DNA of 64,000 bases from the NCBI RefSeq assembly GCF_963676685.1, contig NC_092355.1:13330001-13394000 (forward strand), given 5' to 3'. Shown in pieces: positions 5,215-63,486 of the stretch. The notes under the pieces are model-generated. The model saw only the letters and a list, made by a program, of their open reading frames with translations. It did no database searches and was not told the origin of the DNA. Position 1 is the first letter of the stretch, and each line of letters begins with the position of its first letter. The position numbers were made by a program, and so were the translations under genes. Origin of the DNA: Mytilus edulis. Taxonomy: Eukaryota.

Positions 5215-5490
5215 TATAATACAGATACAGTTAAGTCTGCCTCCTATCTTGACTTACAACTAGAAATTAACAATGAGGGTCTGTTGAAAACAAAACTTTA
5301 AAACAGAAGACATGATTTCAGCTTTTAATTTCATATGAAGCAGACTTATCTGTATCTGTAGTATCGATGGGATAGATTCGTTCAACATAGTCGCCAAATT
5401 CTGTATTATTTAGTGAGAGAACATTATCTATATAGCGGAACGTAAAGTTAAAGGTTGCGGCTAACTTATTAACTTCATTCCTAAAATATT
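5215..5490. mobile_element. Penelope-like RT fragments in inverted arrangement
   Basis: Minus strand FNFTFRYIDNVLSLNN..IYP..DTTDT; the plus-strand piece 5215-5325 overlaps the same RT segment. Confidence 0.7.
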
Positions 5491-9000: not shown

Positions 9001-9047
9001 TAATACCATTACGCGAGTAAAATACTTTTGTCGTTTGTCGTTTGTCG

Positions 9048-9965: not shown

Positions 9966-10229
9966 ATAATATTTGTCATAGGTGATGAATAACAGAAAAA
10001 AACAACAGATTCATCGACAGATTTTTTGGAATATACATAATAAGTTTGAGATCAACATCTTCTGGTAAGAAAAATAATATAACACACGACTCCTGCTCAC
10101 ATTGCTATGTCTTAGGAATTGTTATCAATTCATGCTCCGTTAATATTAACTTGATTTATATAAAGTCAACTTCACAAATCAAAATTCGACTCAATCATTA
10201 TAGCGTTTATTGATTTACATTTTATAAAA

Positions 10230-27452: not shown

Positions 27453-29537
27453 TCATTTGTTCACCGTAAGAAACACAACACCGTTCATTATTCCACCGGT
27501 TGCACCAACAAATATTGAAGCATATCGAAGACCCATTGGCGGTTCATTAACTGAAATCCATAGTCCTTCGATTGCATTTACACCAAACTGTATTACATGA
27601 ACCAACACAAACAGTGATAGTTTAAATGCAAGACGTCTTGAGTTGATCGCTGATTGTTGCCCAAAAGATTCATTCATAACTCTTGTCTGTCTTTTGATAT
27701 AACACCATATGACCAAGTACAAGGCTATTATGATGGCAAATGACAAAAATGCAACGAGACATACTTGTAGAAAATGGAAGGTCATCAACCCACGCTCTTC
27801 TTTTATCGAACAACTGAAAAATTGAAATTGAAAATAAGAACGATTAAAACGGATTAAACGTTTGACACATGTATAGCCTTTACGTAAAAATAACAAAAAT
27901 ACAACATTCAAGGTGACAATCACAAAATTATATAAAAAAAGGAATAGTAGATAGAACAAATATTTACCGAAGACACAATTATATTGTTCCAATTTTGTTT
28001 AAGTTTGTATGTTGCATGTTTAAGTAAACTCCTTTCGGTTTTTTTTGTTATATTATATTATCCCTGTAATATTGAATTGCTGTCATGTTATAAGTAAACA
28101 GAAATAATAGGTGATATGTTGGCATATCAGAAACATGAATTTATTTAATATGATTCACTTTTATATTTCACAAAGAATCATATTTCGTGTCATACCACAT
28201 GTACACATACATAACAGATGATTTAAAAACTTTTTCAATGATTTTAACAGTTTCGAAACAATCTTACGACAAGTTCTGTGAATTAAAAATCTTAATCAGC
28301 TCTGCAACATATAAATACAGAAGTATACGATTTAGTATATACAGGAGCATACATGGACATACGCACACTATACATCTATACAATTGTTTCGGATGACTCA
28401 ATTTTTATGCCCCACCTTCGATAGTAGAGGGGCATTATGTTTTCTGGTCTGTGCCTCCGTTCGTCCGTCCGTGTGTCCGTTCGTCCTGCTCAGGTTAAAG
28501 TCTTTAGTCAAGGTAGTTTTTGATGAAGTTGAAGTTCAATCAACTTGAAACTTACTACACATGTTCCCCATGATATGATCTTTCTAATTTTAATGCCAAA
28601 TTATAGTTTTGACCCCAATTTCACGGTCCACTGAACATAGAAAATGATAGTGCAAAGCTCAGGTTAAAGTTTTTGGTCAAGATAATTTTTTATGAAGTTA
28701 AAGTCCAACCAACTTGAAACTTAGTATACATGTTTCCTATGATATGATCTGTCTAAATTTAATTTCAAATTAAAGTATTGACCCCAATTTCACGGTCCAC
28801 TGAACATGGAAAGTTATAGTGCGAGTGTTGCATCCGTGTACTATGGACACATTCTTGTTTTAAACATTCTGAATGTATGTCATAATGCCTTTCTTTACAA
28901 AATTTATACTTTGTATTACAAATAAAGTTTTTTTTTATATGTGCTACCTGCGTTTTGTTCAGTATTTTGCTTGTTTACAGCAGTTTGCTTTTATCATATT
29001 TAGTACAAATACTACTTACAATGCTGGGTTTGGTGAAAACTTCCCAAAGAAGGCTAATGTTGTCAGTTCAATTACAGGAAATCCAATTGCAGGACAAAGT
29101 AGAAAAACATCCCACTTGCCTAACGGTAAATTCCGACTTCTAATCACAAGATTGAAAGCATTAATTGCTATCACGGTACTTAGAAAAACTTGCGAAAATG
29201 CAAATTCAAGTATTAACATTCCGTAAATTGAACATGCCAAATTAGTAATTCTGACATATTTAGCAATTCCTTGATGAATTCCAAATGCTGTTTGAGCTGC
29301 ATAAAATAGAAGATCACATACCACCGTATAAAGACTGAATCTTTCGATGACTTTCCATTTGAAGAAATTACCCTTGCTTGATCTGATGAGATAAATCAAG
29401 ACAATTGAAGAAATAATGATGCTGCAAAATGTTATAAAAATTATTGGTATACCAATTTCTAATGGTAATCCTTTAAAATCATATGGTGATAATGTTGTGG
29501 TGATTTGAAATGTATCATTATTGTGTTGCTCCATCAT
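27453..29537 (-). CDS. 7-transmembrane GPCR-like protein, 292 aa (resembles cAMP-receptor/GCR1/GPR157-like group)
   Basis: Exon 1 29537-29020 (donor GTAAGT, phase 2) joins exon 2 27813-27453 (acceptor ttttcAG) in frame (PNPA-F-CSIK). Four plus three hydrophobic helices, ERFSLYTVVCDLL before/in TM2, Cys at the top of TM3 and in ECL2, TGGIMNGVVF in TM7, N-terminal NDT sequon. The family label is tentative. Confidence 0.85.
28402..28860 (+). mobile_element. Helentron/DINE-1 (pearl-like) non-autonomous element in GPCR intron
   Basis: TTTTTATGCCCC..GGGGCAT inverted repeat, (GTCC/GTTC)n microsatellite, two ~170-bp core repeats (28489, 28658), 3' short palindrome before T-run. Confidence 0.75.
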
Positions 29538-29859
29538 TCTTCAACGCACGATAGAAAATGATCTGGTTTTTTTATATATATGATCAGATTACCGATGAGA
29601 ATAAACGTATATTATACTGGAGTACAATACTTTTTTAATGATGTTCGCTGCTAATAGTCAGGTTTTGACATATATTCGGAATCCTCAGGTTTTATCAATG
29701 TAGCCTTGATAAAAAAAAAATCCCGCTTACCTATTATTTCTTGTCACTATTTTATTACACATAGTTAAAAAAAAGCAATTTTTGGGAATCCTTGTTTTTT
29801 TCAAATTATTTTTACAGAAAACCTTGCAAAATGTTTAATGATTTACTAAACAGGGTTCA

Positions 29860-33400: not shown

Positions 33401-33596
33401 CGGGTTGTTGTCTCTTTTACAAATTCCCGATTTTCATTTTGAATTTTATGTTGAAATCAAGCGATACAGTATCACTTAATTTGGGTTACAAACTCAAACA
33501 GTTGGAAGGCGGAAACACTATCGTAGAATATGATCATATACCCCCTGTGGAGATCCTGAATATAGCCCTTGATGGTGCAAACTTCCCTAAATAACG

Positions 33597-33900
33597 TGTA
33601 TGGTGTAATGGTGTATGGCATATGGTGCAATGGTAGAAGGTGTATGGCATATGGTGCAATGGTAGACGACGTATGGCATATGGTGCAATGCATGGTAGAC
33701 GGTGTATAGCATATGGTGCAATGATAGAAAACGTATGGCATATGGTGCAATAGTAGAAGGTGTATGGCATATGGTGCAATGGTAGAAGACGTATGGCATA
33801 TGGTGGGATGGTAAAGGTGTATGGTGCAATGGTAAAAGGTATATGGTACTATGGTGTAATGGTAGGAGGTGTATGGTGCTCTGGTGTATGGTGTAACGGA
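33597..33900. repeat. ~29-bp minisatellite
   Basis: Unit TGTATGGCATATGGTGCAATGGTAGAAGG, ~7 copies decaying rightwards. Confidence 0.9.
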
Positions 33901-36900
33901 AATAATGTAATTGTGAATGAGGAATGGTGTGATTGTGTAACGTGTATATAAAGTGTGGGAATCAAAGTTTAAAACTATGCAAATTATTGATACGAACTGA
34001 TGTTAAATTTTATACATTAATTTACAATATTGTGATCAAAATACATTTTTTTAAATCAATAAAAAGTTTTGTAGTCGCACGTTTTCGTTGATATTAAATT
34101 GCATTATGATTAATTTCTAATGGGGTACATAGAATGTGTTAGGTGTATGGTGCAAAGTTGTAATGTGTAAGGTGTAAACGTTGTATGGTGAATGGTGTAA
34201 TGGTGTATGTTGTTAGTGGGAAATTTACACCTTCCAAGGACTGACAATTACAATTACATTCAGTTCGTGTTTTAAAAGATAGGCAAAGACATCTTTCAAA
34301 AGTGATATTCAATCTCATAAGTCGCAAATAATCCTTAAATGACTAAGCAAAAAATAAACAGAAAATGATGAAAAGACAAACAACTTTACAAAACACAACA
34401 TTCAAAACTGAAGACTGAACAACACGAACCCCACTGAAAAATTGAACAATAAGATATTCTGGTAAGTGCTCCGGAAGGGTAAGTAAATACTAACTAGAAG
34501 TCGTACTTAATTTATGTTGATACTGATGCAACGTCTATCAAATGTAGTATCAGCAAGTAAATATGTTTTGCTGGTGACAATAAATGATTATTTGATTAGG
34601 TCTTTCCACTTTTTCTGTGGAATAACCTATTGTAATTGTTCTGATTATTTTTTTCTTCTTCCGCCAAATTTTTAAACTTGTGTTGTGTTTTCGCAAGATG
34701 TCGCGTAGATTGTTTGCTTTTTTTTGTGACTGACCTTGTTTAGTTGAAGATTTTTAGTGTTATCTCCTCCCCTGTCACCGTAAAATAAAGCGTACATGAT
34801 AAAACCATAGGGTCTTTTTAAAACTGTTTGTTGCTATATGACCTTAATAAATAGAAAACGGAAGTGACCCTAAGTAAACCGGAAGTAGCTATTTGCGCAA
34901 TTATTTCTTGGAAAAAGTACCTAGAAACTAAATGTTTTTTAAATATGCTTGATTTTAAACATATTTTATTGATTAAGATATGAAAAGGATTGAGCAACAG
35001 GCACAGCCTATAAAAGCTGTATTTAAAATAATGCAATATAGTGGAACATGCATGCATTTGTGAGCACACACGAGCAACTAAACTCATCATTTGTACCAGG
35101 ATTGAAAATGTGTATTTACACCTGATGAACGTTTCGTCTACAAAAGGCTCATCGGTGACGCTCGAATAAAAAAAAAATAAAAGGCAATTTCAGTACGAAG
35201 TTGAAAAATATTGAGGATCAACAATTCCCAACAGTTTTGCCAAAAACAGCTAAAGTTATATATTCCTGAGGTAAACATGAAAGTCTTGGTATTAAAAAAA
35301 AACATCAAAGTTTTTGTAACAGTTTATTTAGATTTATGACCATATCAATGGTAATTTATGTCAACACAACTGTGTTTATAAAAATTCCTTAACCCTGAAA
35401 CTGTTGAGCATTGGACAAATTGTCTCTCAGTCAATTTAGAAAAAAAAATACAAAAAAATGTGCAAGATTAATGAAAAAATAAGTTTATTGAATACCATTT
35501 ATACAGGTTCAAAGATATGTGTATGAAAATAGTTTTGTCTAAGTACAAATGAACGTTTGCATTTTAACATGCATTTTCGACCTTTTCAGCGTTTATATAA
35601 TTTTCAAAATAGAATTTACATTTGTTTTCATAATAAGGGGTGATCAGCTGATGTAGCAATAGTATTACCTGTTTGCGATCTCTTAAAACCGATAACATGT
35701 GTACTAGGAATGTCGTCTTAGGATGCAACTAAATATCCCGAATCTAAGAAAACAGGAACCTCATTGCCAAAACCAAAATCAAAATCGACGACAAAAACAA
35801 TTATGGGAAATCAGTTTAAAGTTAGCTAAGAATTAAGCAATACAAAACCTCCAAGGCACCGTGGTGAAGTTATGTGCTCTGGAAAGGTGAACAGATCTTG
35901 CTCTTCTTAAATTCCTGTATTGATGTTCGTACCAGCACTGTTTCAGTGATAGATCGCTTTATGTCACAATCGACGTAGCAGATTAGAAATTTGGTTTCCT
36001 AAAGTACAACTACTTGTCCATGGACACAAAGATTCCAATACTTTCAACCAACTCACATTGGTCCTCCGAAGTATTGACGAAACGTCTTAATTCAATTTGA
36101 ATCTTTACTCTATGTTATTCCATATAAAGTGTTGATGACAGCGAACGAAACGCCATATCGTACTAACCATGCTAACTGTACGATTCTAAAAATATTCATT
36201 AATTTGTTCATAAAAGAATATATTGGTATAGGTAATCTAGTTTCATAAAAACAACGTAGCAAATGATCATCAATGTCTTGTGATGTCTCGAATAAACCCC
36301 GTGTTTTACAACAGTAATGGTTTTAGAGACTCGTAATCCATTTCAATGTGTATAAAGACACACATTTGTCTCAAGAGGCATTTATACACTGTGAGAGTCA
36401 TGAGAAGTTATGAGTACAGCCATTCATCGTGTCGGTTTACAGTTAGCTTTTAAAACATATACTATTTTATTTTCAAAATACGTACCAAATTCACATATGA
36501 TTAGTATGCTTACTCATTTCATATTGTTTACTAGGCTGTGGAAAGGTACGTGAATGAATGTAGATAACGATATATATGTGGATCACATATCAGACAACGT
36601 GAGGTTTACTTAAGAAAAAAACGTTCGACAGTTCTGCGGTCTTATCAAACACAGGAACATAAAAATGAAGTAAACTATTATCTGAATTTCGCATGAGTAT
36701 ACATGGTATACGCACAAGTTTCATTTAAACTGAAGAAATTTTTCACGTCAATTAATTCAATTTAAAAGAATTTACATCACCAAAATGAATTTATTGTGAA
36801 AATATGAGATTATTCAAAATGTAAAATGGGTTTTGAATCCTTGTGAGGTATTCGTTTCTTTCAAACACAGGTTTTCTTACCTGCACCATATTTCATGGAT

Positions 36901-41533: not shown

Positions 41534-44500
41534 TTAGGCTGGGGCTGTGTGCTTCCTGGCATCATCTACAACAATACACAAATGTTATTACGAAGTTATG
41601 GTAGAGACGACTTCGTGAAATAGAGAACTGTAAACCAACTTATTTTCGCGAGCGTTTTATTTTTGTGACTTTCGCGAGAAGGAAAATAACTCGAATATAA
41701 ATCGTCGCGAAAATGTTAAACTTTTCAGAAAATCGCGAAACATAATAGCCGTGAAGTAATCTAGAAAGGATAAATCGCGAACTCAAGTTTCCTAATGAAA
41801 GATGGTTTACAGTATATTAGATAAAATGGTATTATAGATCTATAAAGATCTGAAGCAGCTTTGCAATGTTTAACTGATTTCATTAACAAGAGTTCGTTCC
41901 ACATATCAGAGACATATCAAATAGGGTTATAAAAATGATTGAACATAAGTATCTTTTCAGAAATCAGAAAATCCTACTTTAATCACATTCTGATGAACAA
42001 TTAACATTGAAATCAACATGAGAAATCAGCAAATAATTGAAAGCTTTATACACAGTATCGCGTTAATATTATTTGTATATGTTAGGTATTTGCAAATTTA
42101 GATGAAGACCCTTATTTGATATATTTTTTTAAAAATTATGCTTTTAGGACATTTATCCTATGTTTCAAGTTACAGTATGACCTCGACCTTAAGGGGAAAT
42201 GTCTGCAACTAATTCTGCAACCATATACCGAACGAAAACAAACACACGATCGAAAAAAAAAAAAACGTTTTAGATCATTAAGTTGAACATACATAACAAT
42301 CATCTATATTTGGTACGGGTGCCACATATGGAGCAGGATCTGCTTACCATTCCGGAGCCCTAGATATCACCCATTTGGTTGGGTTTGTGTTGCTTATTCT
42401 TTAGTTGTATATGTTGTGTCATTTGTACTATTGTTTGTATTTTTCATTTTTAGCCATGGCATTATCAGTTTATTTTCGATTGATGAGTTTTACTATATTT
42501 GGTACACTTTACCTACCTTCAATCCAGGCAAAAACAATCTGTCTACAGTAACTACTCAGTCTCACCAGACGTAATCGTACATGCGTATCTTTGAACAGGA
42601 AAAAAGGCTATACTAATACTATCGGATTAACATACATGTATATTTAAAAAAGCTATACAATATAAAAAAGAAGATGTGATATGATTGCCAATGAGCCAAC
42701 TGTCCACAATGCACCAAAATGACACAGACATTAACAACTATAGGTCACCGTATGGCCTTCAACAATGAGCAAAGTCCATACCGCATAGTCAGCTATAAAA
42801 GGCCCCGATTAGACAATGTAAAACAATTCAAACGAGAATAACGACCTTATTTATATAAAAAAATGAAAGAAAAACAAATATGTAACACATAAACAAACGA
42901 CAACCACTGAATTACAGGCTCCTTACTTGGGACAGACACATACATAAATAATTTGGCGGGGTTCTGTTGCAACTCAAATGAACAAAATATCGCTTATAAC
43001 TCACAACTGTAATTTAAGCGGGAGGTTAAGCTAGTAATAAACTAGGTGTACCCTACCACATGCTGTTGCTTTATATTTGTTTGTAAGTTATTACAATCCA
43101 ACGTTAAATTGTGTTTTATGGACTACCCTCTTTTTAAGTAACCTGAGTGTTCGGGATACATGTAAGTTCACTTTTATATACGGATAGGAAAACAAATCTA
43201 AAACAGCTGTACCAATCGTTACGTTGGTTTATAAAGTCATTTTTACGGCTTTACACTGTTTATATTTACCTTGGAAAATTCAAAATATGTAAGTAGGGTT
43301 AACCCAATCAGTTAATATTAAACTAACCAAGTTGGTGTTTGTAATGGAGACAGCTTTTTCCAGCAATATGTTTTAGAAAAAAAATGTGGAATGTATTTAT
43401 TTATAAACGATACAATGATTTACTTACAATCCGAGACCGAATCGTCATCTGAAAAAAGTTATGAAAGAATAAGGACTCAAAAAGTTCATGTAGATTTAGC
43501 TTTATATTTTTACAACCCAATTTCTAATCAAATTGTGATGGCATGGCTGTTATTTAGAATCGGATTGTACGTTCCTGTATTTCATGGTTTTAAACGAAAC
43601 TGAAACCTGCAGAAAAAACATATATAAACCTGTCCGTGTAAAGAATATACATGAAGTCTTAGCTCGTCTGTTCAGTCCCCGGTGGTTATCATCACCTCAG
43701 TAGTCAGTACTCCGGTGATGTCATGTTTGATAATACATCTTTTATATTGCCCGTAAATGAATTATGCAATTATAATATAACGTATGTCTCAATTACCTCA
43801 GTCAAAGTTTTTTTTATGTCATTTTTGTATCATATATTCCCTTAATTGTATCGGTTCTTACACGTTAATGGCTTTCAAATATTCGGATTTGAGCATTATT
43901 TGTTAATGTTAATAAAAAAAACGCTTCAGACGACTGGCATTTTTTACGTGTTCTTTTCGGTTTTTTAGTTTTTACGTAGTTAAAAAAAAACTTATTTGCT
44001 GGAAATAGTGGATTTTTTTATTGTTTCTTTTTTAACCTTACCATGTAGCCTATCGTGTTCCATTTCCTTATCCCCATTCGTCTCGGTTAAAGCATGGAAA
44101 CCCAGGGCTACTTCTAAGTACAATCTTTGGACATCTAAAAATAGACAAAATGCGATTTACAATAAATGCCGATTTTACAGATACTTTCACCTCGACTTCT
44201 TTATTTCAAATACATGTATAATGTATGTTTATCATGTTTATGTTTAATAATAGAATATGTTTTAATATACCTGTTGTAGGTTTAAAGGGGTATTATATAC
44301 GAGATATTTATATAAAAAATGATTTGTTTAGTTCAATCATTTAAGAAATAAAATAGTGCTTTTGGCAGCCAATTTTGTTCAATTCTGACAAAATAAAACA
44401 GATTTATCATGATTATGTTTACATCGGTTTATTATTTTTGAGAGATGACCAGTTAGATGTGTTTCAGACTAAAATTCACACTTAAAGCTGATACATATAA

Positions 44501-47500
44501 TAAATCATGATTATTATCAACACATTTGGTTTTTAGACTTGTTTATGTGTTTGATAATCGTTTACGTATGTTTTCAATCGAATATAAAAAAAAATGAAAC
44601 CTCGATTGGAATGACTTTTACGGCGTATGCAAATTTAAATCGACAATTATATGTTCATACTAAACATATTGACGACATCAGTTATTGCCCAAAAATTGAC
44701 ATACGCTGACCCTTTCTTTTATATTTCTTCCATTATGAACCATACATTTGTTAAACTCACACTTACCTGCGAAATGATGATGCCTTTCCCATCCGTTTAA
44801 TAAACTTATGACATCTAAAATAAGATTTGGCTGTATTAGTTATAATTTTACCAGTCTAGTAACAACAATGTACACAGAACATAAACCCGATGTCAATATT
44901 TTCACAGGATTATATGTTAGACACTGACTTATGTACTCTAATTTATGGAGTATTTGTATTTTTGGATGCCGTAGAACTTCGATTAAGAAAGAAGGAAGCT
45001 TCTTTTTGATAGCATGATCAAGGCATGTAGTAGCGGAAGTCGCCAATTTGAGTTTGTAATTGAGTAAAATAGGTTTTATATTCCATCAAAAGCTTCTTTT
45101 TGATAGCATGATCAAGGCATGTAGTAGCGGAAGTCGCCTATTTGACTTTGTAAGTGAGTAATATAGGTTTTATATTCCATCAAAAGCTTCTTTTTGATAG
45201 TATGATAAAGGCATGTAGTAGCGGAAGTCGCCTATTTGACTTTGTAATTGAGTAATAGAGGTTTTATATTCCATCAAAAGCTTCTTTTTGATAGTATGAT
45301 CAAGGCATGTAGTAGCGGAAGTCGCCTATTTGACTTTGTAAGTGCGTAATAGAGGTTTTATATTCCATCAAAAGCTTCTTTTTGATAGTATGATCAAGGC
45401 ATGTAGTAGCGGAAGTCGCCTGTTTGACTTTGTAATTGAGTAATAGATGTTTTATATTCCATCAAAAGCTTCTTTTTGATAGCATGATCAAGGCATGTAG
45501 TAGCGGAAGTCGCCTGTTTGACTTTGTAATTGAGTAATATAGGTTTTATATTCCATCAAAAGAAAACAAAGCATACTAATAAATAAATATTTATAAAAAA
45601 AATATAGATAAGAAAAATTGTGATTAATAGATATACAAACACAGAAACAGAACTAAAATGAGAAGGGAAATGTAAATCATTACAAATCACAAAACTTCTT
45701 GTCTGCCTTTGTCGGCCACATATCAATACAAGCTGACATAGAGTAATCATACCTTTTACTAGAAAAATATACAAAATAAAGCAATATGATATAGGTCAAC
45801 GATGCTTGTTAAAAGACCGAAATAAAATAAATAAAGGAATTATCAATTAGCTTTTTATTTCATAAGAGTTCTCTTTACTTACGGTTAGCATCTCGTAAGT
45901 CAGTACAGTGTTCTCCTAAAAATAAAACAAGGCGAAACAAAAGCACTTGCGCTTGAATATTTTTAAACATAACTAGGGTTTAAATCAGAAAATTCTTAAA
46001 CATCGTTTAATACACTTTTACGTTTTTCTATAGAAAATAATCTAAGGATCGTAAAATGACATTCGACCGTTTTAGTTGGAAATTATTTGATAAGGCCATT
46101 TCTTAACAATAAGGCTAAAAGACAACACAATTGAAAAATAAAGACTCAGCAAAACAAATTCCATCAAAACCCGGTATGATCTTTAGTGGTCTGTACGTGT
46201 AAGCAAATTATGCTTCACATGCGGCAATAAACATGATTAGGATGAATCATATATACCGGTTGTTAATGAATGATACATCATTGAGTAAAATACAACGTCT
46301 GATGTGCTCAGTGTTAATAAGGTCAATAATTTAAAAACAAATCGCCACCTATTGTTCGAAGACGCATTTCTATACAACTTTTAAGCTTTTAGTTACAGTA
46401 TGTGTTTTATTTCTTCAAATAATATAACATACCAGTTTCTGTAGGACTTTTCGTGTCATGTTTTGCAAGATCTGTTGATTACATTTATAAAAATATCAAT
46501 CACACAAGTCTAGTAAATAACATAAATAACATAAACAGTACACACTGTACTGCACCAGCTGTGTCTTGTCTATATGCCTTTTTGTATTTCTTTTTTAGCA
46601 ATGTTTTTCTATTTATAGCGATCAACATTGTATGACTTCCGTACCCTTGTTTTTGGCATTTTTTTTAAAGCGATTAAGATTATAACACAATGTTGACTGC
46701 TGTTCCCCTAATTTTGACATTTTTAACTATTATGTCTGTTTGTTTTGTTCACCCATCTTTGTCATCATAATGTAATTGTATTCGAATGTCATACATGTGA
46801 GAGGTTTAGTTATAATTAAAACCAGGTTAAATCAACCATTCTACATCAAAAAATGCCTGTTACAAGTTAGAAAAATAATATTTGTTTTCCATACGCTTGA
46901 TGTGTTTCAGTTTTTTTCATTTTGTCATTTCATCATGTTCATTGCGGAATTTCCGTTTTGAATTTTCCTAGTTCGGTATTTTTTATTTTACTTTTTTAGG
47001 GCAATACATGTCTCTTCAGTGATGCCCAAGTCAGATATTTAAAAATCAAAACCTCTTTAGGAAAAATGTTTGAATAGTTTAGTAAGTTTAATGACAATTA
47101 AAATGTACTCATGTTTGGAACATTTATAAAAAATATAAATTTAATCCTGTAAGTACCAATTTCTACTAATAGTTCACTAACAATGCTTTAGTCGTTTTGT
47201 ATTCATAGTTCTTCGGTTTAACGAAAATTCAGACCTGAGATAATAATATGAAATTTAACGTTAACGCATATCTTTAACATTTTTCACATATTTTAAACAT
47301 ATTATGACACAATCATATAAGCACTGTATGTTGTAATCAACAAATAACGGGTCTGCTTTAAGATATTTTTACACATCGTAATACATACTTAGTCGATGAT
47401 TTTAGCTTACTATTTTGATACATCCTCTAATGCAAAAAAAAAAGATTTATGTGCTTTTTTGCTCTGTATATAACTTTAAGTAAGACTAGCATATATTATC

Positions 47501-50500
47501 CTTTGTAACTTCTTATTCAATTTACTCAATGTAATGTAGTTCCCTATTATTATTTTTTTTTTTGCAATATATCTGAAAGAGGTGCGAACGATACCAAAGA
47601 TACATTTAAAGTCATAAGTCGTAACAAACTAACAATACCATGAAACAATACATTAGAAAACAATTTAGTTCATGAACTCTTCAATTTATCAAGCAAGATT
47701 ATACTTTGATAGACATCTTTGAACTGATGCACATACTACATACTAATTATAACTGGTTTCCCCCTCCCCCGAATATATGGTATTATAACTGCGTTCATGA
47801 TAGATAAAGGCAACAGTAGTATACCGCTGTTCAAAACTCATAAATCCATGGACAAAAAACAAAATCGGGATAACAAACTAAAACCGAGGGAAACGCATAG
47901 AAGATGGGAAGATGTAGTAAGAGTGTCAATGAGACAACTCTCCATCCAAGTCACAATTTATAAAAGTAAACTAGTTCAAGGTACGGTCTTCAACACAGAG
48001 CCTTGACTTACACCGAACAACAAGCTATAAAGGTCCCCTACATATTACTGGTGTCAAACCATTTAAACGGGAAAACCAACAGTATAATCTCTATAGAAAA
48101 CGAGAACCGAGAAACAATTATGAACCACATCAACAAAACACTACTGAACATCATATTCCTGACGTAACATTTTAATGGTACTAAACCTATCTGTTAGCCC
48201 CAAACATCATTCTTACCTTCAATCCAGATCATGATTTGTCTTCGGCATTCTGCATTCATGTGTGTGTTTATGTAGCTTTCAACATGAGTATCTACAAAAA
48301 TATTGATGAAAAACGAAATTTGATGTGTATCTATGACATTATGTGGTACATTGTGCATTACAATTACAGTTGAACCTGTGTAAGGATATACATATTTTGG
48401 GACCATGTACATGTATTGGTTAAAACAGGATCTTGAAATACTCAGGTGTCGGATTAGAAAGTATACACTGTATAACGTTTGATTTGTGAAGTTTACAAAA
48501 ATTTGATACTTCCAATAGGTTTAGTAAATAGCCAACTCTAAAGCACATTTCAAGACGAAAAAGTAAAAAAAACTAGGAAAAATCAAACGCTGTCAATCAA
48601 CGGAACACACGAAAAACAATACCATATTTCTATGAAAAAGTGCAGGGTTAAAGCTAGTTTTATGGCCAGGTAAGCTTCTTACTTGTATGACAGTTGGCTA
48701 TATAAGAAAATAACATTTATGTCTCTCTTAAAGGTTGGGAAAACGCGTACTTATTTTGTTTTAGATGTACATACATGTAGTGTAAGAATTTTCCTACATA
48801 CGTGACCCGAGAAAGTTGTGTTTGTAAACAAAATTTCAGACTGGGTTTAATTTGCACGTTAACTCATATAAATTTCGATTATTGCAATTGTTTGGTTACT
48901 GTCTTATACATGTTATATAAGTAAGGCTCCAAATTTCTTCATATTCATCGACAATAATATTCTTGAAATATTGACCACCGAAATAAGCACACAATTGTCA
49001 TACAACTCTTTTATATAGATTTTTTCATAATTACAGTCCGGATTTCCATTCAAGAAAGCTTCATCATAAACACTCGTATAGCTGTGAACTAATTGGTTGG
49101 AAGGATGACTTCCAACATTATCCAGAAAGAACCCTGTAAAAAATGAAGAAAAAAGACCATTTTAGATGTTTTGTTTTATTTAATTTTTTTTAACAATATG
49201 TTTGTTTAATTTGAATGGGACACCAATAGTTAACAAATAATACATGTCTTAAATGCACGTGATGTTATCGTTGGCAAAATAACAACAAGCATAATTTTGA
49301 ATCTTTTGCTTTAAGTTGGAGTTCGTATATTAAAAAATAAAAATCAACCAAAAATAAGGTAAAGAAAAAAAGTTTAATTCTTGAAATTTTTGGCTCCTTA
49401 TAGATGCTCATCCTTAAGAATGAAGCTATTCATAAATCATATAAGGATTGAATTTAGCTACACCGAGTTAAAAGGTACGTTTCAGGGTTGAGATACTGGC
49501 ATGGTTAACTTTTTTTCTCCGATTGTCCGTTGATATTTCAATATCTAAACAGGAACTCTTTCACGCAATGTAAACCTTTGACATGTTTGAAGAATATAGC
49601 TATCATTTTTAGAACCCTTTTTGAAATATAGATATTCACGCGTTTCAATACATGTACATATATACGTACTTTGACATATAATGAATTTCTGATCGAATAT
49701 ATTTTCTCATTGCTAAAATGACAGAATCTGTTTTAACTGTCTCAGGAATTTTCAATTTTGATTGTCACCTATTCCATTTAATATGTTTTCCGTCAGTTAA
49801 GTAAATAACGGGAACTTTGACTTGTTAACCTCATGACTAAGAATAATATTTTTTTTCTACATGATATTTTTATAAAAATTTAGTTTGCAATAAAAATTAG
49901 GGGCTACAAAATAGTTATGCGTACTTACGTTTTCTATCTTGTAATGATTTATGGTATATATCATGATATAATCTTTCTACAGCTGAAAGAAATAGTGGAA
50001 AAAACAAACATTAGAATTATCATACATATTTTCATGACTTGGAAATGAAAAGGACTAAAACATTTTTTTCCCAATGATTAGAATGTATTTATATACACCA
50101 GTCGACAAAAGTATTTGCATTGTTCCTTTGTTGTATCGTATGACAAAACAACCTGATTTTTTTCAATTTGCATAGTCGTGGCATTATACGAAATGAATTA
50201 CAAAAAAATGTAGCATTTGAAAGTATGATTTGTCTGTCCTTTAAAAACTTATTACGTCTGATTCCATCATATAGCTGTCTGATAACAGAAATGAATTAAA
50301 GCGAAATTCAAAGATGGCAAATATACATAACTTATGCATTGAAAATTTAAACTAGTTTGTAAAATTCATTTAAGATAATTTTTGTTATATAAACTGCTCA
50401 TTCATATCACAACTAACATACCATTATAATTATCGTGCTTAACCCATTCTTCTAACAACAGAATTGCATCTATAAATAAACGAAAATATGTGTCATATTG

Positions 50501-53500
50501 TTATTTTGCTTTTCTATCAATTTAAAAGATCCTTAAAAATAATAATATCACTTTATAGATTGCGTGCGTCAGAAGAGCTTTTCAAGAGTGACTTGCACCA
50601 AAATGTTTTATGGTGATTAAGATTATAAAACAATTTTTACTGCTGTACCCCTATTTTTGATATTTTTACCAATTATGTCTGTGCGTTTTGTTAACACATC
50701 AGTGTTTAAATAATTAAATTTGATGCGATTGTCATACAAAGGCGAGGTTTAGCTAGGTTTAAAAAGAGGTTTAATCTACTATTTTCTACATAAGAAAATG
50801 TTTGTACCAAGTCAAGAATATGACAATTGTTATCCATTCCTCTGTAAATACATCTTTATTTCGTGTGCCATACTTTGCGTTTGCATCTATCCAACCTGTA
50901 CATTAACGATTTTTTGCACTTATTTTAACAGATACTCTCATTTCCGTTTAGCTATTTTGGTCGCATTTTGCGGCGATTCTAAATTGCAATTTTCAAATTT
51001 AATTGATGCAGTTTAGTACATGGTCGCGGCCATTTAAATTCGCGTTATTTTTCTTATCGCGAAATCGTGAAAATAAATCGCTCACAACATTTAGCTGGTT
51101 TACTGCACCCTAAGGTGGTACATCAGATTACAGGGAGATAAGTCTGTAAAATCAGCTGAACGTTTTATTCACGTTTGATTGCGTAAAAAGCTTATGTTAT
51201 TACAAATCCGGTAATTAGTCTAATTCGGTTTGAATCTGACTAAAGACGACACAAAAATATCTATAAATATTTGTAAATGGACTGTATAACTATAAACGTA
51301 AGTTATGGATAAATTAAAAATTCTACTAATTGGTCAGTTTTCAATGCTTTCACTGAAAAGACCATTGCTCATTGACGATTCAAATGAAACCAGAGTTTAG
51401 AGAGTTTTCTATGATGCTATTGTTTAGTGATTACTACGAGAAAAAAACATTGAACAGTAATACATAGAGTAGGGTTATTGCTAATTATATTCATTATTTA
51501 TGTTATTACGTCGAGAAAGCCAAAGTGCCTGTTAAGAACCACCAATTTGAGATGATAACTCTCAGAATGACTTTGGTCAGTGATAATTTCAGAATGCATT
51601 TTTAGAAATATATGAGTTTTGAGTACGTTATTTTTTGTTATTAGTCTATATTGTATGCATAAGTAGACGCGGGAGTACGGCAAAAGATATCACGATTTAT
51701 AAGATATGGTTGAATGATTGATTGTTGGTTGGTTAACGTCCAGTGGTAAATATTACATGCATGCTCAGGACGAGAAAAGGTTAACAATAAATACAACAGG
51801 TAGGTCTAGTAAATGCGGCCATCCGGGATGATGGTCGGGGAAATTTGGACTGTCACGGTAAAAGGAGGGTATATTGGACAAGGGACATAAGTTTTGAGTT
51901 GCAACAGGCCATATAGACCACTCAAAGAGTTGTTGCATGCGTTCTTTGTATGCAAAGAGCATGACAATCTCTTTTCACAAGGCTTTCGATTTTATAGGAT
52001 GTGAGTAACAATAGCTCTATAAACCTTTACAATGATTGCTGCAAAAATTAGGAAAAGCAAACACTTACAAAGTGTAAATATGTTATCGTCAACTGAGAAA
52101 TCATTTGTTTTATTTGACGTTTAAATACTTGACAACATCATGACCATTAAGTTCAATATGTTTACTTACGCTGTTTACGTCTAACACTATGGCATGTGCT
52201 ACCTGTAAAAAGAAATATTATACTTTATTAAAATTGAAAAAAAAATGGAGTTAACTTATATATTTTATATATAATTTGTTTATGTGCATACACTCTATTA
52301 ATTTATATGTGTCATCCATACAAGTATGTGCTATCTAACAATCTGCAAGTAATTCTTAATGTGGGAATACAAATAATGGTTTAAAATTAATATGTCGTTT
52401 TGTCTTTTTTAACATTGAATCGTAGATTAATTCATCATAGATACCAGGTTGAAAGGTTGCATTTGCGCCAGCGTGTAGTCTACAAAAGACCGAATAGTGA
52501 TGCTGGAATAAAAAAAAGGTTAAAAAGTCCAAATAAAGTACGAAGTTGAATAGCAATGAGGACCACAAATTCCTTAAAGTTTAGCCAAATACCTCATTGT
52601 AAAGCTTTGTTTATCTATTATTGGCAACGACAAGCCTTAGTATTTTCAAAATGTAAAGATTTATAAACAGTTAATTTACAATTATGACCATCTCAATGAT
52701 AATACATGCCAACACAGAAGTGCTGACAACTTGACTAGTTATATAGTACCCTCTGTTCATTTTTTTTGGTAATTCGAAATACATGTTCGTATCTAGTCTT
52801 AATAATTTTACTGTAATGTTAGCATTTGCAATACTCAATTTCTTCAAATTGTGCTATGGTGTATAATTTGTATTTTGGTATCTAACTGCTTTAAATTTTC
52901 TTTATCAGCCAATAAAATCTATTTCCTTTGGTAAATAAGTAGGAATATTATAGATTATTGTCCTATATTTCGTCAACTAGTACCAACAAATATGTTTGTG
53001 CATGTTTTATTATTATTTTTGGTAGGAATCTATGGGTTTTTTTTTTGCTGAGTTTACCATTACTGATTAACCTTCATACCTCACTATGATTAAGTTAATA
53101 ATAACCGAATATAAGGCGAGTATAACTAATTAGATAATCTACATCAAATTCAAAGTTACATATATGGGAAAGTTTTGCATACTATCCTTCAGAAAAGGCA
53201 TGTCATATTGCTAGTAAATATAAAATTAAGAAATAAATAATCATTTCATATAGAATAAACAAACATGAAGCGATATGCACATAGAAATACGAGTTAGAAT
53301 AGTAAAAAGAAGATACAATGTAAATACTATAGTCGATTTTCATTACTGTTTATTCAAAAATTATTGCGATGTTTTAATTGTTGCGAAAACTGTGACAGGG
53401 TTATAATCGCAATAATTTGAACTCGAATTTTTATTTTTTTTTAATGTATTAGTAACAAAGACCAACTAGCAGTTATTGAACTGTCTGCTTTTGCTAGATA

Positions 53501-56500
53501 TAAGAAGATTTGGTATGAATGCCAATTTAGACAACTCATCATCCAAGTAAAAGTTTTCTCACACGAAACAACAAGCTTTAAATGGCATCAATAGACCATT
53601 TCCATATTACCGACTTTTGACTCCGGGTTCTTAAATTGTTAGACAGGTTACCTTATACGTGGTAGGACATCCTGGTACTATTCAATTCCGAACAACCAAA
53701 ATAAACTAAAAAAATTATATGATTTGAGCAATTTTAAAGAAAATTTTTTATTTCCGATGTTTGATTCATTTACAGGAAAGCATTTTAAAGGGTACCCAAC
53801 ACTTTTGCTGTATTTGATTTGGGTCGTGTTTTTTTTTTTTTATAAAGTTTAAACAAAATTTTTACTCTGATCTGTTGACAAAAATACAATTTATAAAAAT
53901 TAGAACCACACAATTTATAGGAATAATTTTGTTGGATATATAGCAGTTTGACAGACGTTAATTTTGATCGATGAAAAGCTTGATATTTCCTTACTAATAG
54001 TATGTGATTTAAATGTTCAGCTGATTTTTAAAAGTTAACTCTCTTAGGCGTTCTCAATATGAATTCAAAAGTCATTTTTTTTTATCGTAAATTTTAGTAT
54101 TAAGTATAAGATATCCAATTCAATTACTAGGTAAACAAAGCTGATTAAATTCAGATAGGCATCTTTAAGTTTTTTTATGACTTTTTCAAATCAACTTGGA
54201 TTTTCATCAAATTATGCAGCTATCTTAGTAATATATTGATAGTACTGAATCCCCGGTCACTATGTAGTTTGGTGTATTGCTGTCAAATTTAAGAATTAAA
54301 TTAATCTATGTCAAAAAAAGCTAGGATTTGTAATTTTGGACAAAATTAATAAGATAGTACACTTTAATTCTTTTTATAACTTTTTCAAATCAACTTGGAA
54401 TTTAATCAAACTATACAGCTACCTTGGTAATATATTAATCTTACTAAATACCAGGTCATTATGTAGTCAGATGTATTAATGTCATATTAAAGATTTAAAA
54501 TTAATATAGGTAAAAAAAAGCTTGGATTTGCAGTTCAGACAAAATTCAGATAGTACACTTTATTTTTTTTATAGCTTTTTTCAAATCAACTTGGATTTTC
54601 ATCAAACTATACAGCTACCTTGGTAATATATTGATCTTACTGAATCCCAGGTGGTTATGAAGTTTGGTGTATTGTTGTAAAATTTAAGAATTAAATAAAT
54701 CTAGATAAAAAAGCAAGTCTCTATGCATCAATAAATGACTGATAAACACGAATTAGTAGAAAGATATAAGAATATTTGGAATCTAGGGGGAAAAAAGTGT
54801 ATTTGCAGTTCGGACTATATTCAGATAGTACACTTTTATTCCTTTTATAACTTTTTCAAATCAGCTTGGATTTTCATCAAACTATGCAACTATCTTAGTA
54901 ATAAATTGATCTTACTCAATCACAAGTCGTTACGTAGTTTGGTGTATTGATGTCAAATTAAAGAATTAAATAAATCTAGATAAAAAAGCAAGTCTCTATG
55001 CATCAATAAATGACTGATAAACACGAATTAGTAGAAAGATATAAGAATATTTGGTATGAGTTTCAATGAGACACCTCTACCTCCAAGTCACAAGTTATAT
55101 TAGTAAACCATTATAGGTCAAATAAAGGCAACATTAGTATACCGCTGTTCAAAACTCATAAATCCATGGACAAAAAACAAAGTACGGTCTTCAACACGGA
55201 GCCTTAGATCACACCGAACACCAAGCTCTAAAGGGCCTAACAAAATACTAGTGTAAAACCATTCAAACGGGAAAACCAACGGTCTAATCTATATAAAGAA
55301 CGAGAAACAAGAAACACTTCTGAACCACAAGTTTACGTATAAGTCAAAACGTTTGCTCAGTTATTAGAAATAATATATAATAAGCACAAAACAATCATCA
55401 TTAGTTTTACAATTTTAATAGCCTTCAAGTTAATAAAGATTAAAAATAAAATATCCATACTTACTTTGAAAAAAAAATGAACGATGGGTGGTTGTAGTAG
55501 GAGGCTTTGTGGTGTGCTTGATAGTCGTTTCGTGATGATGTTTAGCTGGTGAAATAGCAATCAGTCCTGAATGAAATTATTAAAAGGAAATTGAATTGCA
55601 CCATCAAATTACAATCCGTTCAAAGCGATATAACATGTCTTTAACCAGGAATATATTTGACAAGAAAAACAAAACAGAAATATCTGTAATCAATTTTATA
55701 AATAAGTTTACGACATAACTTCTGTAAGTATACTGAATTGTTCGTAACTTTCGATGAAGTTTAGTCGTACAATTTGTTGTGAAACTTAACATGAGTGCAT
55801 ACTGATTGTCTCTTGACCAAATGTCGTACTTTTTTTTTGTAGTTATTTATTCATTGTAAATATTGTTCATCCTCAGTTTGATCTATTCAAAAGTGAAAAT
55901 CCCTTATCAAATGACACATTTAAACGCTGAAACACTTCAAAATTACTTCTACTGTTAAGTCTGTTTTTTGTTATATATATTTTACGTGACTATGTATTTA
56001 TGTATCCCGTCATACTTTGAACGACAACATTATTTCATGTCTACCTGTGCGAATTTCAAACGCGCAATTTTTACACCAGAACTTTAAACTTTTCATCCGC
56101 TATGGGTGGATTTAAAATAGATAATTAACATCGTTTAATATAAACAAAATGAGGATGTTAAATTTAATGTATGCCTTTTGTGCTTCTTCGTTACATTTGT
56201 TGTTTTTATAGTGATTAAGATGATAACACAATGTTGACTGTTGTACCCCTATTTTTGACTTATTTACCTATTGTGTCTGTTTGTTTTGTTCACGCATCGT
56301 TGACAATATAATGGAATTTGATGCGACTGTCATACAAGTGAAGGGTTTAGCTAGCTATAAAACCAGGTTCAATCCATTATTTTCTACATAAGAAAATGCC
56401 AGTAAGTCAGGAATATGACAGTTGTTATCTACTCGTTAGATGTGTTTGAGCTTTTGATTTTGCCATTTGATTGTGGACTTTCCTTTTTGAATTTTCCTCG

Positions 56501-59262
56501 GAGTTCAGTATTTTTGTGATTTTACTTTTTTTTCAAACGAACAGATAACAACCGGCATTTTACTGCCTTGTCACAGGCATTTTCTCATGTGTGCTAAACT
56601 TGGTGTTATAGCTAACGAAACCTCTCACTTGTATGGTTATCACCAAAAAAAAAATCAATGATATTGACAACGAGGTGCGAAAACAAATAAACAGACATAA
56701 TAGGTAAAGGTACGTTATTTTTTTTTATTTTTTTACTGGACGGACGGAACTGAGTATTACTTTCATTAAAACAATGAGGTACGATGAGGTGCTTTGTTAA
56801 TTAATATACGACAAGGAAGTCTGTTTTATAAGATAAAATCAAAAGACGAACGCCAAGTTACCAAATCTTAAATAGGCAAACTCTAGAAATGAAATAGATA
56901 CTCAAATAGATTTCCGTACACGATTTCAAAACACAAAATATAAATATCGTACACCGACTTGACTTCTATTATATTTTTCCATTTAGCTAAATAATATCAG
57001 ATTAAAGCAACGTATTTATCGATGGATTTTTTTGGAATATACAGAATTAGTTTTGAGATCAACATCTTCTGGTGAGAAAAAAAGTGAAAATATACAAATC
57101 TCCTGCTCACATTGCAATGTCGAACCAACTGTTATCCATAAACATTACACTCGATGGAAAGTCAATTTCACATAAAAGTCAATCATAATTCGACTCAATC
57201 ATTATAGCTTCAATCGATATAGATTTTTGAACGTATTTTTCGGACATGTTATGGATTGAGTTCGATTAAAAATGGTAAAATGAAAGGAAGGAGATGTGGT
57301 GTGATTGGCAATGAGAAACCTATCCACTGAAATTAACTGAATTGGATGTAATTAGCTACAGTCAGCCATAAGGCTTTCCGAAATGGTACCGACCAGAACA
57401 TGCACGACAAAGGCTTAATATAATGTGATAACCAATACCGTGGTGTCGTTAATTGTTGTAGTATAACTCATAACGTTGGAATTCTTCTTGCAGATTTACG
57501 CATTTGCTAGTCATGTTAGTTCTCTAAGTTTTTAACGTGCACTTTGGGGTAATAGTTTGGTTCATATCAAAAATAGTAGGATAACATTTAATTTTTCATA
57601 TAACGTTGTCAATTTGTCAAAATGAATAAGTTGTGCACAATATAATGACAATACATCTTTCCTTATCGTTATGCGGTATACGGAAATGTGAACTAAACGT
57701 CAAGTAATTAAATCTGATCTATTTAGAGCATGCTATTTGTTAACTGATACACACAACAATACACAACAATTGCACACTTACAATATACAAATGTTCAAAC
57801 ACAATCCCAGGCAAATTACTATGCTAGTAAACATGCAAATTTCTACTGATATAAATTATTAAAAACAAAGCAAAGAGAAAAGAAAATAGTCAAAGGAGGA
57901 TAACTATATTTTTGACGTTTAATATTACATTTCTTTAGCAGTAACACTTTCTGCCATCAATAACAAGTTGCCTACAATGCTATCAGCTATGTTTTTAGTT
58001 GGCAATCTACATGCGTTGATTCGAGCGTAACTCATGGGTCTAGTAAACACGAAACACCGGTCTTGCGTACAGCATTATGCATCTGCATTTTATAAGTATG
58101 AACTATTAGGGATATGCAAACTACAATACATTGCTGTCATATGTGATTGCTAATCGGTTTATGTTTGAAAATCAGGCTTGTTCTGATAGACATGTGAAAT
58201 AACTAAAAATAAAACGCTCAATATAATGTGATAAGTGCTAACCGGCCATTGTTTTATATTGTTTGCAGAAAAACAACAAAATAAACTAATTGTTAACTCG
58301 TTACATTTTTCGTAAAGATAGCAGATGTCAAAGGCACAATGTTTCGCCTCCATGTCATGTTGTAATTTCTATGATTGTTAAAAATAAAAAATAAAAGGTC
58401 TTTACGTCTTGATTGGTTATTGATTTCCAGAGAAATCACTTTAGTTTATTTTTCAATTAATGCTAAATCTGCTAGAGAATACACTCATAACTCTTCTTTT
58501 GTTTAACTATATATGTTCTGTATTGTTTGTTTACCTCTGAACATATCATTTGTATGCACTTGCGGCAAACGAGTTATATTTAAAACAATCGCTAGTTTAT
58601 TACAGAAAATATTTAATGATGCAGAAATCCTTGGTTTACATTCTTATAAGCTTGGTTTATCTATAATATACAGAGTACGATCGGTGACCCTCATTCCACA
58701 TTGTTCCACATTTCTTATCATTGCATATTGTCGGTTGTAGTATAGTTTTAAAAGTTTCAAGGTTAATGACGCAATTCCCTTATCACTTTTTATAAACTTT
58801 CTACAAATTGATGACTTTTTTTAACAGGGAAGAAACTGACCATTATCTTTTTAAATTAAAATCACATTCGATCTTATATACGATAATCGCCAAAGGGTAA
58901 TGGATTATGTTGGCCCTGACGGACAAGAAGAAACAGTAAAAGAAACCATGGCCAGTTATAGTGTATATAATTCTATTTACAACTTTTAACCAATACTAAC
59001 AGTAGCAGTAGCATTCGTATATGTTATAAGAGTCAAATCGTCCAATTCATGTGTTTTTACTGCAGATGATTGATTTGTATACGACAATAAATATAACGTT
59101 TTCGAGTAAACAAATTTGCAAACAGTACTTTAAACGCCAATTATCAAATGAATGTCTATTTTGACTAGTTCCACCTTCGTTTAAACCTGTTATTAAAATA
59201 CAAATAAGCATAGAGCACAAAATCTTACCAGACACAAGAAACCACAATTGAACGGTACACAT
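41534..59262 (-). CDS. Micro-exon gene, 14 coding exons, 260-aa predicted secreted His-rich protein with two internal repeats (unknown family)
   Basis: Exons (minus): 59262-59229, 55566-55465, 52202-52170, 50469-50422, 49982-49929, 49133-49035, 48291-48217, 46471-46433, 45915-45883, 44814-44767, 44134-44042, 43448-43428, 42588-42517, 41565-41534. All are GT-AG and phase 1; total 783 nt with no internal stop. Protein: MCTVQLWFLVSGLIAISPA-KHHHETTIKHTTKPPTTTTHRSFFFQSSTCHSVRRKQHAILLLEEWVKHDNYNAVERLYHDIYHKSLQDRKRFFLDNVGSHPSNQLVHSYTSVYDEAFLNGNPDYTHVESYINTHMNAECRRQIMIWIEDLAKHDTKSPTETGEHCTDLRDANHVISLLNGWERHHHFADVQRLYLEVALGFHALTETNGDKEMEHDRLHDDDSVSDYTHVRLRLVRLSSYCRQIVFAWIEDDARKHTAPA*. Exons 1-6 are conserved in the paralogue with only frame-preserving indels. 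Exons 9-14 repeat exons 3-8. AATAAA lies 22 nt after the stop. Confidence 0.88.
41627..41814. mobile_element. MITE
   Basis: ACTGTAAACCA...TGGTTTACAGT terminal inverted repeat with internal TTCGCG/CGCGAA motifs. Confidence 0.6.
42662..42960. mobile_element. Abundant short interspersed repeat (AAAAGAAGATGTGGTATGATTGCCAATGAG family)
   Basis: Related pieces at 75-124, ~47900-48160, ~55050-55330, ~57290. Confidence 0.65.
44997..45560. repeat. 94-bp tandem repeat, 6 copies, intronic
   Basis: AGCTTCTTTTTGATAG... recurs at 44997, 45091, 45185, 45279 etc.; copies differ by few bases. Confidence 0.95.
54175..55053. repeat. ~197-bp degenerate tandem repeat, ~4 copies
   Basis: CTTTTTCAAATCAACTTGGA... 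at ~54181, 54380, 54576, 54851; the ~100-bp segment 54680-54780 is duplicated at 54955-55053. Confidence 0.8.
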
Positions 59263-61344: not shown

Positions 61345-63486
61345 TGGAACGCCACAGCTGTCTTATGTGGAACTCTGATATTACGTTATGTTGTCTTACT
61401 ATAACTTGATTATATTTTGTCTTTACTTAATATGGTTTTGACATTACGTAATGATGTTTTGATATAACTCAATATGGAATAGTCATTACTTAATGATAAT
61501 TTGATATTACACGACATGGTTTCGTATTGACTTGATATAGTTTTGTCACTACTCAATACGGTTTTGTCATTATTCAATGTGGTTTCATCATTATTAAATG
61601 TGGTTGTGTCATTAGTCAATGTGGTTTTAACATTACTTGATGTGAAGGTGACTTAACGTTATGTAGTTGTTTCATTACATGATGTGGTTTTGTTATTTCG
61701 TAATGATGATTTGCCTATTCTTTATATGGTTTTAACATTACGTAATGATGTTTCACAATTTGACGATTTTACACTACATAATGTGTTTGTTTCATTATTT
61801 GGTGTGGTCCTGTCATTCTTTGATGTGGTTATGCCATTACTAGATGAGGTAAAACGACGTGACCAATTCGGAAAAACCTGTTCTATTTTTAGATAGATTT
61901 CAATGTTGTATACAATATGCCTTGGATGAGTGTGGCCATCAATCGAATTAAAATTCAAATTAAAGTTCGGGTTACTGTTCAATTAAAACTTTGAGTTAGT
62001 CTTCGATTTCGAATTCAAGACATTATTATAGAATTAAAGTTCTAGTTAGCATTGAGTTTGGAGTTGAACTTTATGATTTGATTTTTCTAATAGAATGAAT
62101 TTGAGTAGGCATTCACAGTTTCCCGCAAAAAATGTTTAACTATCCATGCAGGGTTATCGTTTCATTGAGATATGCTTACGTTCTTGAGATATACTTCCGC
62201 ATGTGTGTGCATATATATTAATGATTTTACACTTATATGTATATACATTTAACAAAACATTTTAATAGTATTAATTTATTTTCTTTAAAAAGTATTTGAA
62301 GAGTATTCATTGAAGAAATTAATTTATAACAATCGATAAGGAAAATTCGTTTGCACTTGATGATGTCTACGTATCATCATGTTTATAGATCGGTTAAAAT
62401 CCAAAAACGAATATTACTTAATTGAAATCTAGGCGATAGCAATACATCGGAATGACCTCACGGTCATCCGTTGTAAAAAGATTGACATTCGTATATGTTC
62501 AAATGATCATTTTCGTAAAAACAAAAAAATAGGAGACTTCTTATTTTATAGTACTGATGCTTTGTCGGTTAGTCCGAGCCCTCAATATCAAAAAAAGCAT
62601 CTACAAAAAAAAAAACACATTTTATTTTAATTTTGTTTTTACCGATAAATGTATCTATAAATGAACAGCCGGTCAACATTACGTTTTACACCGACAGCAG
62701 CAATATCAGTCGAGGGACAGTGTTCCGCGGAATATTTTACAAAATTATATAATACTGCTTCTATTAAAGAACTAAGAGGAAAACGGCAGGACCAAGTGGT
62801 TTGGGGATATGTCCAAAATGTTGTAAACTTTTAGTACTATTTTCTTATTATTGTCTGTCATTCCCCTTTTTTCATATCAAATAATATGAACAACCATTCG
62901 AACATTAATTTGAACTTTTACTCAATGGATAGCGATACCCATCCAAAAGGACATAAAACAAACGACATATTTAAATCTGTTTAAGAATAGAACATATTTT
63001 TCCGAAATGATCACGTGATTTTACCTCATCAAGTAATGGGATAACCACATCAAGGAATGACAGGACCACATCAAATTATAAAGCAAACACATCATGTAGT
63101 GTAAAATCGTAAAATTTTGAAACATCATCACGTAATATTAAAAACACATAAAGAATAGGCAAATCATCATTACGAAATAACAAAAACACATCATGTAATG
63201 AAACAACTACATAACGTAAAGTTACATTCACATCAAGTTATGTTAAAACCAAATTGACTTATGACACAACCACATTAAATAATGATGAAACCACATCGAG
63301 TAGGGACAAAACCATATTGAGTAATGACAAAATTATATCAAGTCAATACGAAACCATATCGTGTAATATCTTAACATCATTACGTACTGTCAAAACCATA
63401 TTAAGTAAAGACAAAATATCATCAAGTAATAGTAAGATAACATAACGTAATATCAGAGTTGCACATAAGACAGCTGTGGCGTTCCA
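61345..63486. mobile_element. Foldback-like non-autonomous DNA transposon, ~600-bp TIRs, TA target duplication
   Basis: TGGAACGCCACAGCTGTCTTATGTG... inverted at both ends (61345-61970 / 62900-63486); TIRs are built of 21-bp subrepeats; TA on both flanks and a single TA at the empty paralogous site (~19412). Confidence 0.85.

Follow-up and report, generated by a model that had tools for sequence, protein, structure and literature searches.

An internally duplicated, histidine-rich module with a predicted four-helix fold in a Mytilus gene family

Histidine (His)-rich proteins described from mussels include mefp-12, a helical protein whose assembly is driven by His, zinc, and pH according to the accessible text of its source (PMC13022425). 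Here, we describe a gene on the minus strand of a 64,000-nucleotide stretch of the Mytilus edulis genome (GCF_963676685.1, contig NC_092355.1, positions 13,330,001–13,394,000; the whole stretch is referred to as the window). Its product contains two copies of an unnamed module and is compared with mefp-12 by description; no homology is claimed. Like the window protein, mefp-12 is Mytilus-restricted and helical, with about 9–10% His and a signal sequence, but in the same accessible text it is described with a coiled-coil helix of 129 residues and six zinc-finger-like domains, whereas the window protein is predicted to form two bundles of short helices (PMC13022425). No central His-rich helix of ~129 residues was found, the longest predicted helices spanning at most 17 residues in modules of 95–108 amino acids (aa), and zinc-finger-like alpha/beta repeats of cysteine (Cys) and His have no counterpart in a protein with four Cys and no predicted strands. 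Database records for the window product (XP_071141377.1, P0018) and its M. galloprovincialis counterpart (VDH98571.1, P0001) are labeled uncharacterized or hypothetical and annotate no domain name, function, module, cut site, or fusion.

The Mytilus EP protein, or histidine-rich glycoprotein, is likewise a secreted, His-rich mussel protein, but in the accessible part of its description it carries a C1q domain (PMC4517812), which the window family lacks by Pfam (E ≤ 10 for P0001). No paper on this protein family was found among open main texts; supplementary proteome tables could include it. Saposin-like proteins have six Cys in three disulfides, whereas the modules described here have two Cys in 22 of 25 rows and at most four. 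Insulin-type convertase precursors have the insulin Cys pattern, two flanking cut sites, and disulfide-linked halves. The first modules share with them a candidate dibasic site between the Cys halves (13 of 13 rows), but they have one Cys pair and one site.

Gene structure and the duplicated module

The window gene has 14 coding exons from an ATG at 59262 to a stop at 41534, and each of its 13 introns is GT-AG and phase 1 (Table 1). Exons joined by coordinate give a product of 260 aa that is 100% identical to XP_071141377.1 ("uncharacterized protein [Mytilus edulis]"). The surrounding animal genome is AT-rich, and the motifs quoted in the original prediction, which was made from the DNA letters without database searches, were located in separate small minus-strand exons of this gene. 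Its count of 25 His in 260 aa agrees with the spliced product; the range it gave (41534–52202) holds the repeat and omits the first two coding exons. Public contigs support 10 of the 13 splice joints. At the 10 joints from 41565 to 50422, contigs of run X5 cover 10, those of X2 cover eight, and those of X8 cover seven; these runs are presumed to be RNA, none being recorded as such among the listed holders. The three 5′ joints did not occur among the contig rows listed.

The protein consists of a signal-like stretch (best 11-residue hydropathy of 2.46 at residue 6), an arm rich in His, threonine (Thr), and proline (Pro), module 1 (residues 46–153), a short linker, and module 2 (residues 162–256), with no later transmembrane stretch. 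The same signal-like N-terminus and absence of a membrane stretch characterize all five family proteins inspected. The mature chain contains 10.4% His, 4% tyrosine (Tyr), 2.5% glycine (Gly), and four Cys, with a near-neutral isoelectric point (pI) of 6.4, and the modules are bounded by Thr/Pro linkers.

Local alignment of module 1 with module 2 gave a score of 99, compared to a mean of 29.7 (standard deviation 5.6, maximum 71) for 5,000 shuffles, none of which reached 99. Identical residues make up 31 of the 91 aligned positions. The exon blocks correspond as well, with sizes of 33/48/54/99/75 nt in module 1 and 33/48/93/21/72 nt in module 2; both blocks begin with 33- and 48-nt phase-1 exons, and the size difference sits in the loop exons. 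Alignment and exon blocks together confirm the repeat and the exon-block duplication that had been proposed. Two Cys, three His, two tryptophans (Trp), and an RLY motif are common to both window modules, as first read. The proposed size of ~95 aa fits module 2 (95 aa) and falls short of module 1 (108 aa); across 25 family modules, the Cys-to-Cys span ranges from 65 to 104, with the difference confined to one loop.

The original prediction also proposed a small amphipathic helical bundle, to be checked by AlphaFold and Foldseek, and module 2 is modeled accordingly. AlphaFold2 with an eight-row alignment predicted four helices (residues 7–22, 26–37, 66–75, and 78–94) and a low-confidence loop, with a predicted local distance difference test score (pLDDT) of 75.7, a predicted template modeling score (pTM) of 0.68, and hydrophobic moments of 0.22–0.52 for the helices. 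Foldseek returned no match at E ≤ 0.001 in the PDB or viral models. The best VIA-align result (Z 6.3, orange carotenoid protein, root mean square deviation of 3.1, 61 aligned residues) is at background level for such models; it does not qualify as a match, nor does it demonstrate a new fold. No Pfam family scored above the cut-off for 10 family proteins, P0001 had none at E ≤ 10, no NCBIfam family scored above the cut-off for six proteins, the best E value among PDB sequences was 0.25, and an ESM Atlas search was blank and uninformative. A module profile searched against 1.84 billion protein representatives recovered the family only in Mytilus (five matches at E ≤ 0.001, each a protein that the earlier searches had returned), although non-Mytilus mytilids are possibly under-represented. 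With no match for it in Pfam, NCBIfam, PDB sequences, or the Atlas, the module is considered unnamed; it is a predicted four-helix unit found so far only in Mytilus. A degenerate EF-hand considered by eye for the module-2 loop was set aside, since Pfam lends it no support and the loop measures 20–31 residues.

The proposed Cys pair is conserved, being present in all nine family modules of the genome. A set of 27 distinct family modules was cut using patterns that require both Cys and a C-terminal Trp-Glu, so that their 27/27 holds by construction and the claim rests on the nine genomic modules. In a secreted domain, this pair would be expected to form a disulfide. A lysine-arginine (Lys-Arg) pair lies 11–14 residues after the invariant Tyr in all 13 module-1 rows and in none of 12 module-2 rows. 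It is located in a loop between the two Cys of module 1 and is present in all three module-1 lineages, with a chance per lineage of 0.012–0.026 in shuffles. Given its position between the Cys, a convertase cut at this site would leave a two-chain unit held by the predicted disulfide.

Gene family, the amidase-like paralog, and neighboring features

Five family genes with nine modules were identified in the genome, four of them in tandem on contig C12 (13.27–13.39 Mb) and one at a distance on C10, and all five retain the 33/48-nt phase-1 exon pattern. Protein searches recovered Mytilus proteins only. Two matches, P0016 (the intron-containing frame of the window gene itself) and P0017 (marginal), were set aside, and two exon-lacking rows (P0015 and P0028) were removed before trees and counts over 25 modules were made. 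Weak genomic matches were also seen on C5 and C7, and a match on C3 was rejected as a family member for want of exon-like structure. Between older paralogs, the ratio of nonsynonymous to synonymous substitution rates (dN/dS) over module exons is 0.18–0.27, and the family is under purifying selection.

Module-1 and module-2 rows fall on opposite sides of one branch of the module tree (99/97; 96/93 once the long branch is removed; 94/90 with core columns only). The tree has no outgroup, and its long-branch join was flagged. This separation fits a single internal duplication, in which one six-exon phase-1 block would have been copied before the genes on C10 and C12 diverged.

In this assembly, a TGA interrupts the signal exon of the tandem paralog at 11302–565, and the paralog's acceptor near 5686 lacks the AG, so that it is probably a broken allele. 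One database isoform, P0002, spans ~48 kb and combines the window gene's first four exons with later exons of this paralog, reflecting either a chimeric annotation or genuine splicing between paralogs. The C10 paralog, P0011, has two modules; two additional Cys flank the Lys-Arg site in its module 1, one before it and one after, and another Lys-Arg follows the signal stretch. An orphan signal exon of the paralog-3/4 type, with a stop codon, is a remnant of another duplicate.

Paralog 4 (P0010) consists of module 1, a His/Thr repeat linker, and another C-terminal domain in place of module 2. The fusion is known from annotation, with canonical phase-1 sites at the junction, and recurs in a cluster of eight records from five Mytilus species; no module-2 exons were found within 35 kb after the junction. 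In one gene copy, later than the internal duplication, an amidase-like exon block may have taken the place of module 2, joined at the phase-1 intron that follows the linker. The C-terminal domain of P0010 and P0014 matches NCBIfam BPSL0067 (NF033857) at 19.4–20.4 bits (E 5e-4 to 1e-3, profile positions 12–78 of 115), a family that we take to be grouped with Tae2 and the Tae/Dae peptidoglycan amidases. The domain is possibly a relic of a bacterial cell-wall enzyme. Tae/Dae amidases use a catalytic Cys-His pair (accessible part of bioRxiv 2020.04.10.036376), and animal Dae amidases act in defense, some of them without the catalytic Cys (accessible part of bioRxiv 2021.05.13.443009). Further BPSL0067-like exon copies occur at four loci on C14, C13, and C7 and make up a small mussel family; no module exons were found in the 10-kb stretches surrounding them.

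Several other features of the window were noted. A 197-aa frame between the window gene and the tandem paralog, on the opposite strand, matches the Niemann-Pick C1 N-terminal domain (E 4.6e-40). Two hydrophobic frames, judged by eye, resemble the halves of a seven-helix receptor, with no Pfam match above the cut-off. Among the retroelement fragments, those in the first intron of the tandem paralog match an endonuclease (E 1e-11) and zf-RVT (E 2e-7), and the rest are reverse transcriptase-like by eye, with no Pfam match. Of three minisatellites, the 94-nt one is located within the intron that separates the first and second exons of module 2.

Table 1. Coordinates of the window gene, related loci, and neighboring features (window positions unless a contig or locus is given)
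Feature	Position	Strand	Basis
Coding exon 1: start codon (ATG) plus the first half of the signal-like stretch	59229–59262	-	exon join, hydropathy
Exon 2: remainder of signal stretch, then N-terminal arm rich in His, Thr, and Pro	55465–55566	-	X8 contig covers exon
Module 1, 33-nt exon, first Cys (Cys49)	52170–52202	-	exon join, module alignment
Module 1, 48-nt exon, predicted helix 1 (H-x-I ... W-x-x-H)	50422–50469	-	contigs, module alignment
Module 1, predicted helix 2 (RLY); Lys-Arg site at end completed across intron (residues 90–91)	49929–49982	-	contigs, alignment
Module 1, variable loop exon; run allele differs at 5′ end	49035–49133	-	contigs
Module 1, predicted helices 3–4, second Cys (Cys139), W-I-E	48217–48291	-	contigs, alignment
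Inter-module Thr/Pro linker, 39-nt exon	46433–46471	-	contigs, exon join
Module 2, 33-nt exon, first Cys (Cys165)	45883–45915	-	contigs, alignment
Module 2, 48-nt exon, predicted helix 1	44767–44814	-	contigs, AlphaFold2
Module 2, predicted helix 2, then acidic/His loop lacking a Lys-Arg pair	44042–44134	-	contigs, AlphaFold2
Module 2, acidic loop exon of 21 nt	43428–43448	-	contigs
Module 2, predicted helices 3–4, second Cys (Cys241)	42517–42588	-	contigs, AlphaFold2
Last coding exon with stop	41534–41565	-	contigs
Tandem paralog, 5′ part; runs on ~8.6 kb left of window	565–11302	-	
Paralog 4 (P0010)	G000:C12:13284025-13271807 (L005, L006, L018)	-	annotation, exon sites
C10 paralog (P0011)	G000:C10:14792618-14773327 (L008, L009, L013)	-	
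BPSL0067-like exon copies	L019:4032-4208, L020:4165-4341, L021:4620-4733, L022:3693-4606		30–49% identity
Orphan signal exon, paralog-3/4 type	36484–36522	-	
Niemann-Pick C1 N-terminal domain frame	16525–17115	+	domain match, E 4.6e-40
Hydrophobic frames	29019–29540, 27456–27998	-	by eye
Retroelement fragments	7374–11017	-	
Retroelement fragment	20634–21080	+	
Retroelement fragment	24751–26106	-	
Minisatellite, 94 nt	44996–45559		
Minisatellite, 29 nt	33584–33839		
Minisatellite, 21 nt	61380–61852		

Readings of the family and their meaning

We tentatively favor a reading in which the protein is a secreted, processed, helical module that serves as a metal- or pH-switched anchor for mucus-type defense secretions, a possibility that we hold above the others while regarding it as far from secure. 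The window gene product, with its two duplicated and predicted four-helix modules, is likely secreted; module 1 is likely cut at the conserved Lys-Arg, with the halves held by the predicted disulfide. Surface His would then likely bind zinc or copper between molecules, binding would be switched on as the protein leaves an acidic granule and meets seawater pH, and the His-metal links would anchor the protein in the secretion and, in paralog 4, may anchor a microbe-binding domain as well. The defense setting is suggested by the amidase-like partner domain and the mucin-like Thr/His linkers. Each of 25 modules has 5–13 His and one to seven close His pairs, the positions of which drift between modules. 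Looser surface metal binding by His clusters is possible.

Several observations weigh against this reading. His richness fits structural byssus or shell proteins equally well. The site in the window protein reads D-R-K-R, an ordinary dibasic site that falls short of the complete furin form R-x-x-R. None of the 10 joints from 41565 to 50422 was seen in the raw reads of RNA run X21, and expression is therefore not general. The dN/dS between the window gene and its nearest paralog, which looks broken in the assembly, is 0.63. A full-length AlphaFold model is poor (pLDDT 35.7), the four-helix model being that of module 2 only. The BPSL0067 match falls under the curated cut-off of 27 bits and belongs to a paralog, the domain being absent from the window gene, and nothing was found for the P0010 C-terminal domain in Pfam or among PDB sequences.

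The strongest competitor, itself unlikely, is that the protein is a structural material of byssus, shell matrix, or egg or larval coat, with His-metal cross-links like those of mefp-12, the Lys-Arg cut as an assembly trigger, and no defense role. A helical, likely secreted, Mytilus-restricted protein with 10% His is what such a material could look like, and uncharacterized His-rich plaque proteins are reported in the accessible text of PMC13022425. Against this, the long coiled-coil helix and zinc-finger-like repeats of mefp-12 are missing, Tyr and Gly are low for such a material, and none of 12 family accessions is named in any paper (main texts only).

A bolder form of the anchor reading, which we also consider unlikely, is that this is a new extracellular four-helix domain that is cut by a convertase to a disulfide-held two-chain unit and used as a swappable metal- or pH-switched anchor, deploying a domesticated bacterial amidase domain in one paralog.

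It is rather improbable that the protein is a prohormone-like precursor, in which the cut, disulfide-linked module would be a two-chain ligand, or a loop peptide would be released, and the His would be incidental. The dibasic site between two Cys in every first module recalls insulin-type precursors by analogy, and the helical faces are conserved, but a single cut site defines no released peptide, loop length ranges between 36 and 59 residues, hormones are not usually fused to a mucin-like linker and a further domain, and there is no Pfam match.

We give little credence to the original proposal of one intramolecular three-His site per module, as in a metal carrier or small metalloenzyme. The three conserved His are present in 22, 25, and 17 of the 27 distinct modules, the W-x-x-H motif in 25 of them, and all three His together in six of the nine genomic modules, which counts in favor of such a site; they are lost jointly or singly in module 2 of paralog 3 and both C10 modules. 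In module 2, His12 and His23 lie at opposite ends of one helix, 11 residues or 16.5 Å apart in an ideal helix, and two His at that distance are too far apart for one metal ion. His68 is oriented 178° from the hydrophobic face, toward solvent, and His12 is also off that face. An alternative cluster of His23, His25, and the C-terminal His (20–25 of 27 modules each) may be close together. A single fixed three-His site is therefore unlikely, given the 6/9 retention and the separation along one helix, and surface His with shifting positions are easier to reconcile with metal binding between molecules than with one fixed site. A small hydrophobic-ligand or membrane-binding domain like the saposin-type or nematode polyprotein units would share four amphipathic helices, a conserved Trp/Tyr core, a predicted disulfide, and a dibasic site, but is very doubtful with two Cys instead of six and a near-neutral pI. 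No saposin-type family is among the best 50 structural rows (best Z 6.3), a result that leaves such a fold possible.

The family defines an unnamed, compact helical module with a predicted disulfide closure and a traceable history of exon shuffling, in which duplication was followed by replacement of one copy with an unrelated domain. Without metal- or pH-switched assembly or a link to amidases, it would be one more lineage-restricted secreted mussel family. If either holds, the module would be a building block for mussel-inspired materials, and if the amidase link is true, it would represent a horizontally acquired antibacterial domain with a host-made anchor.

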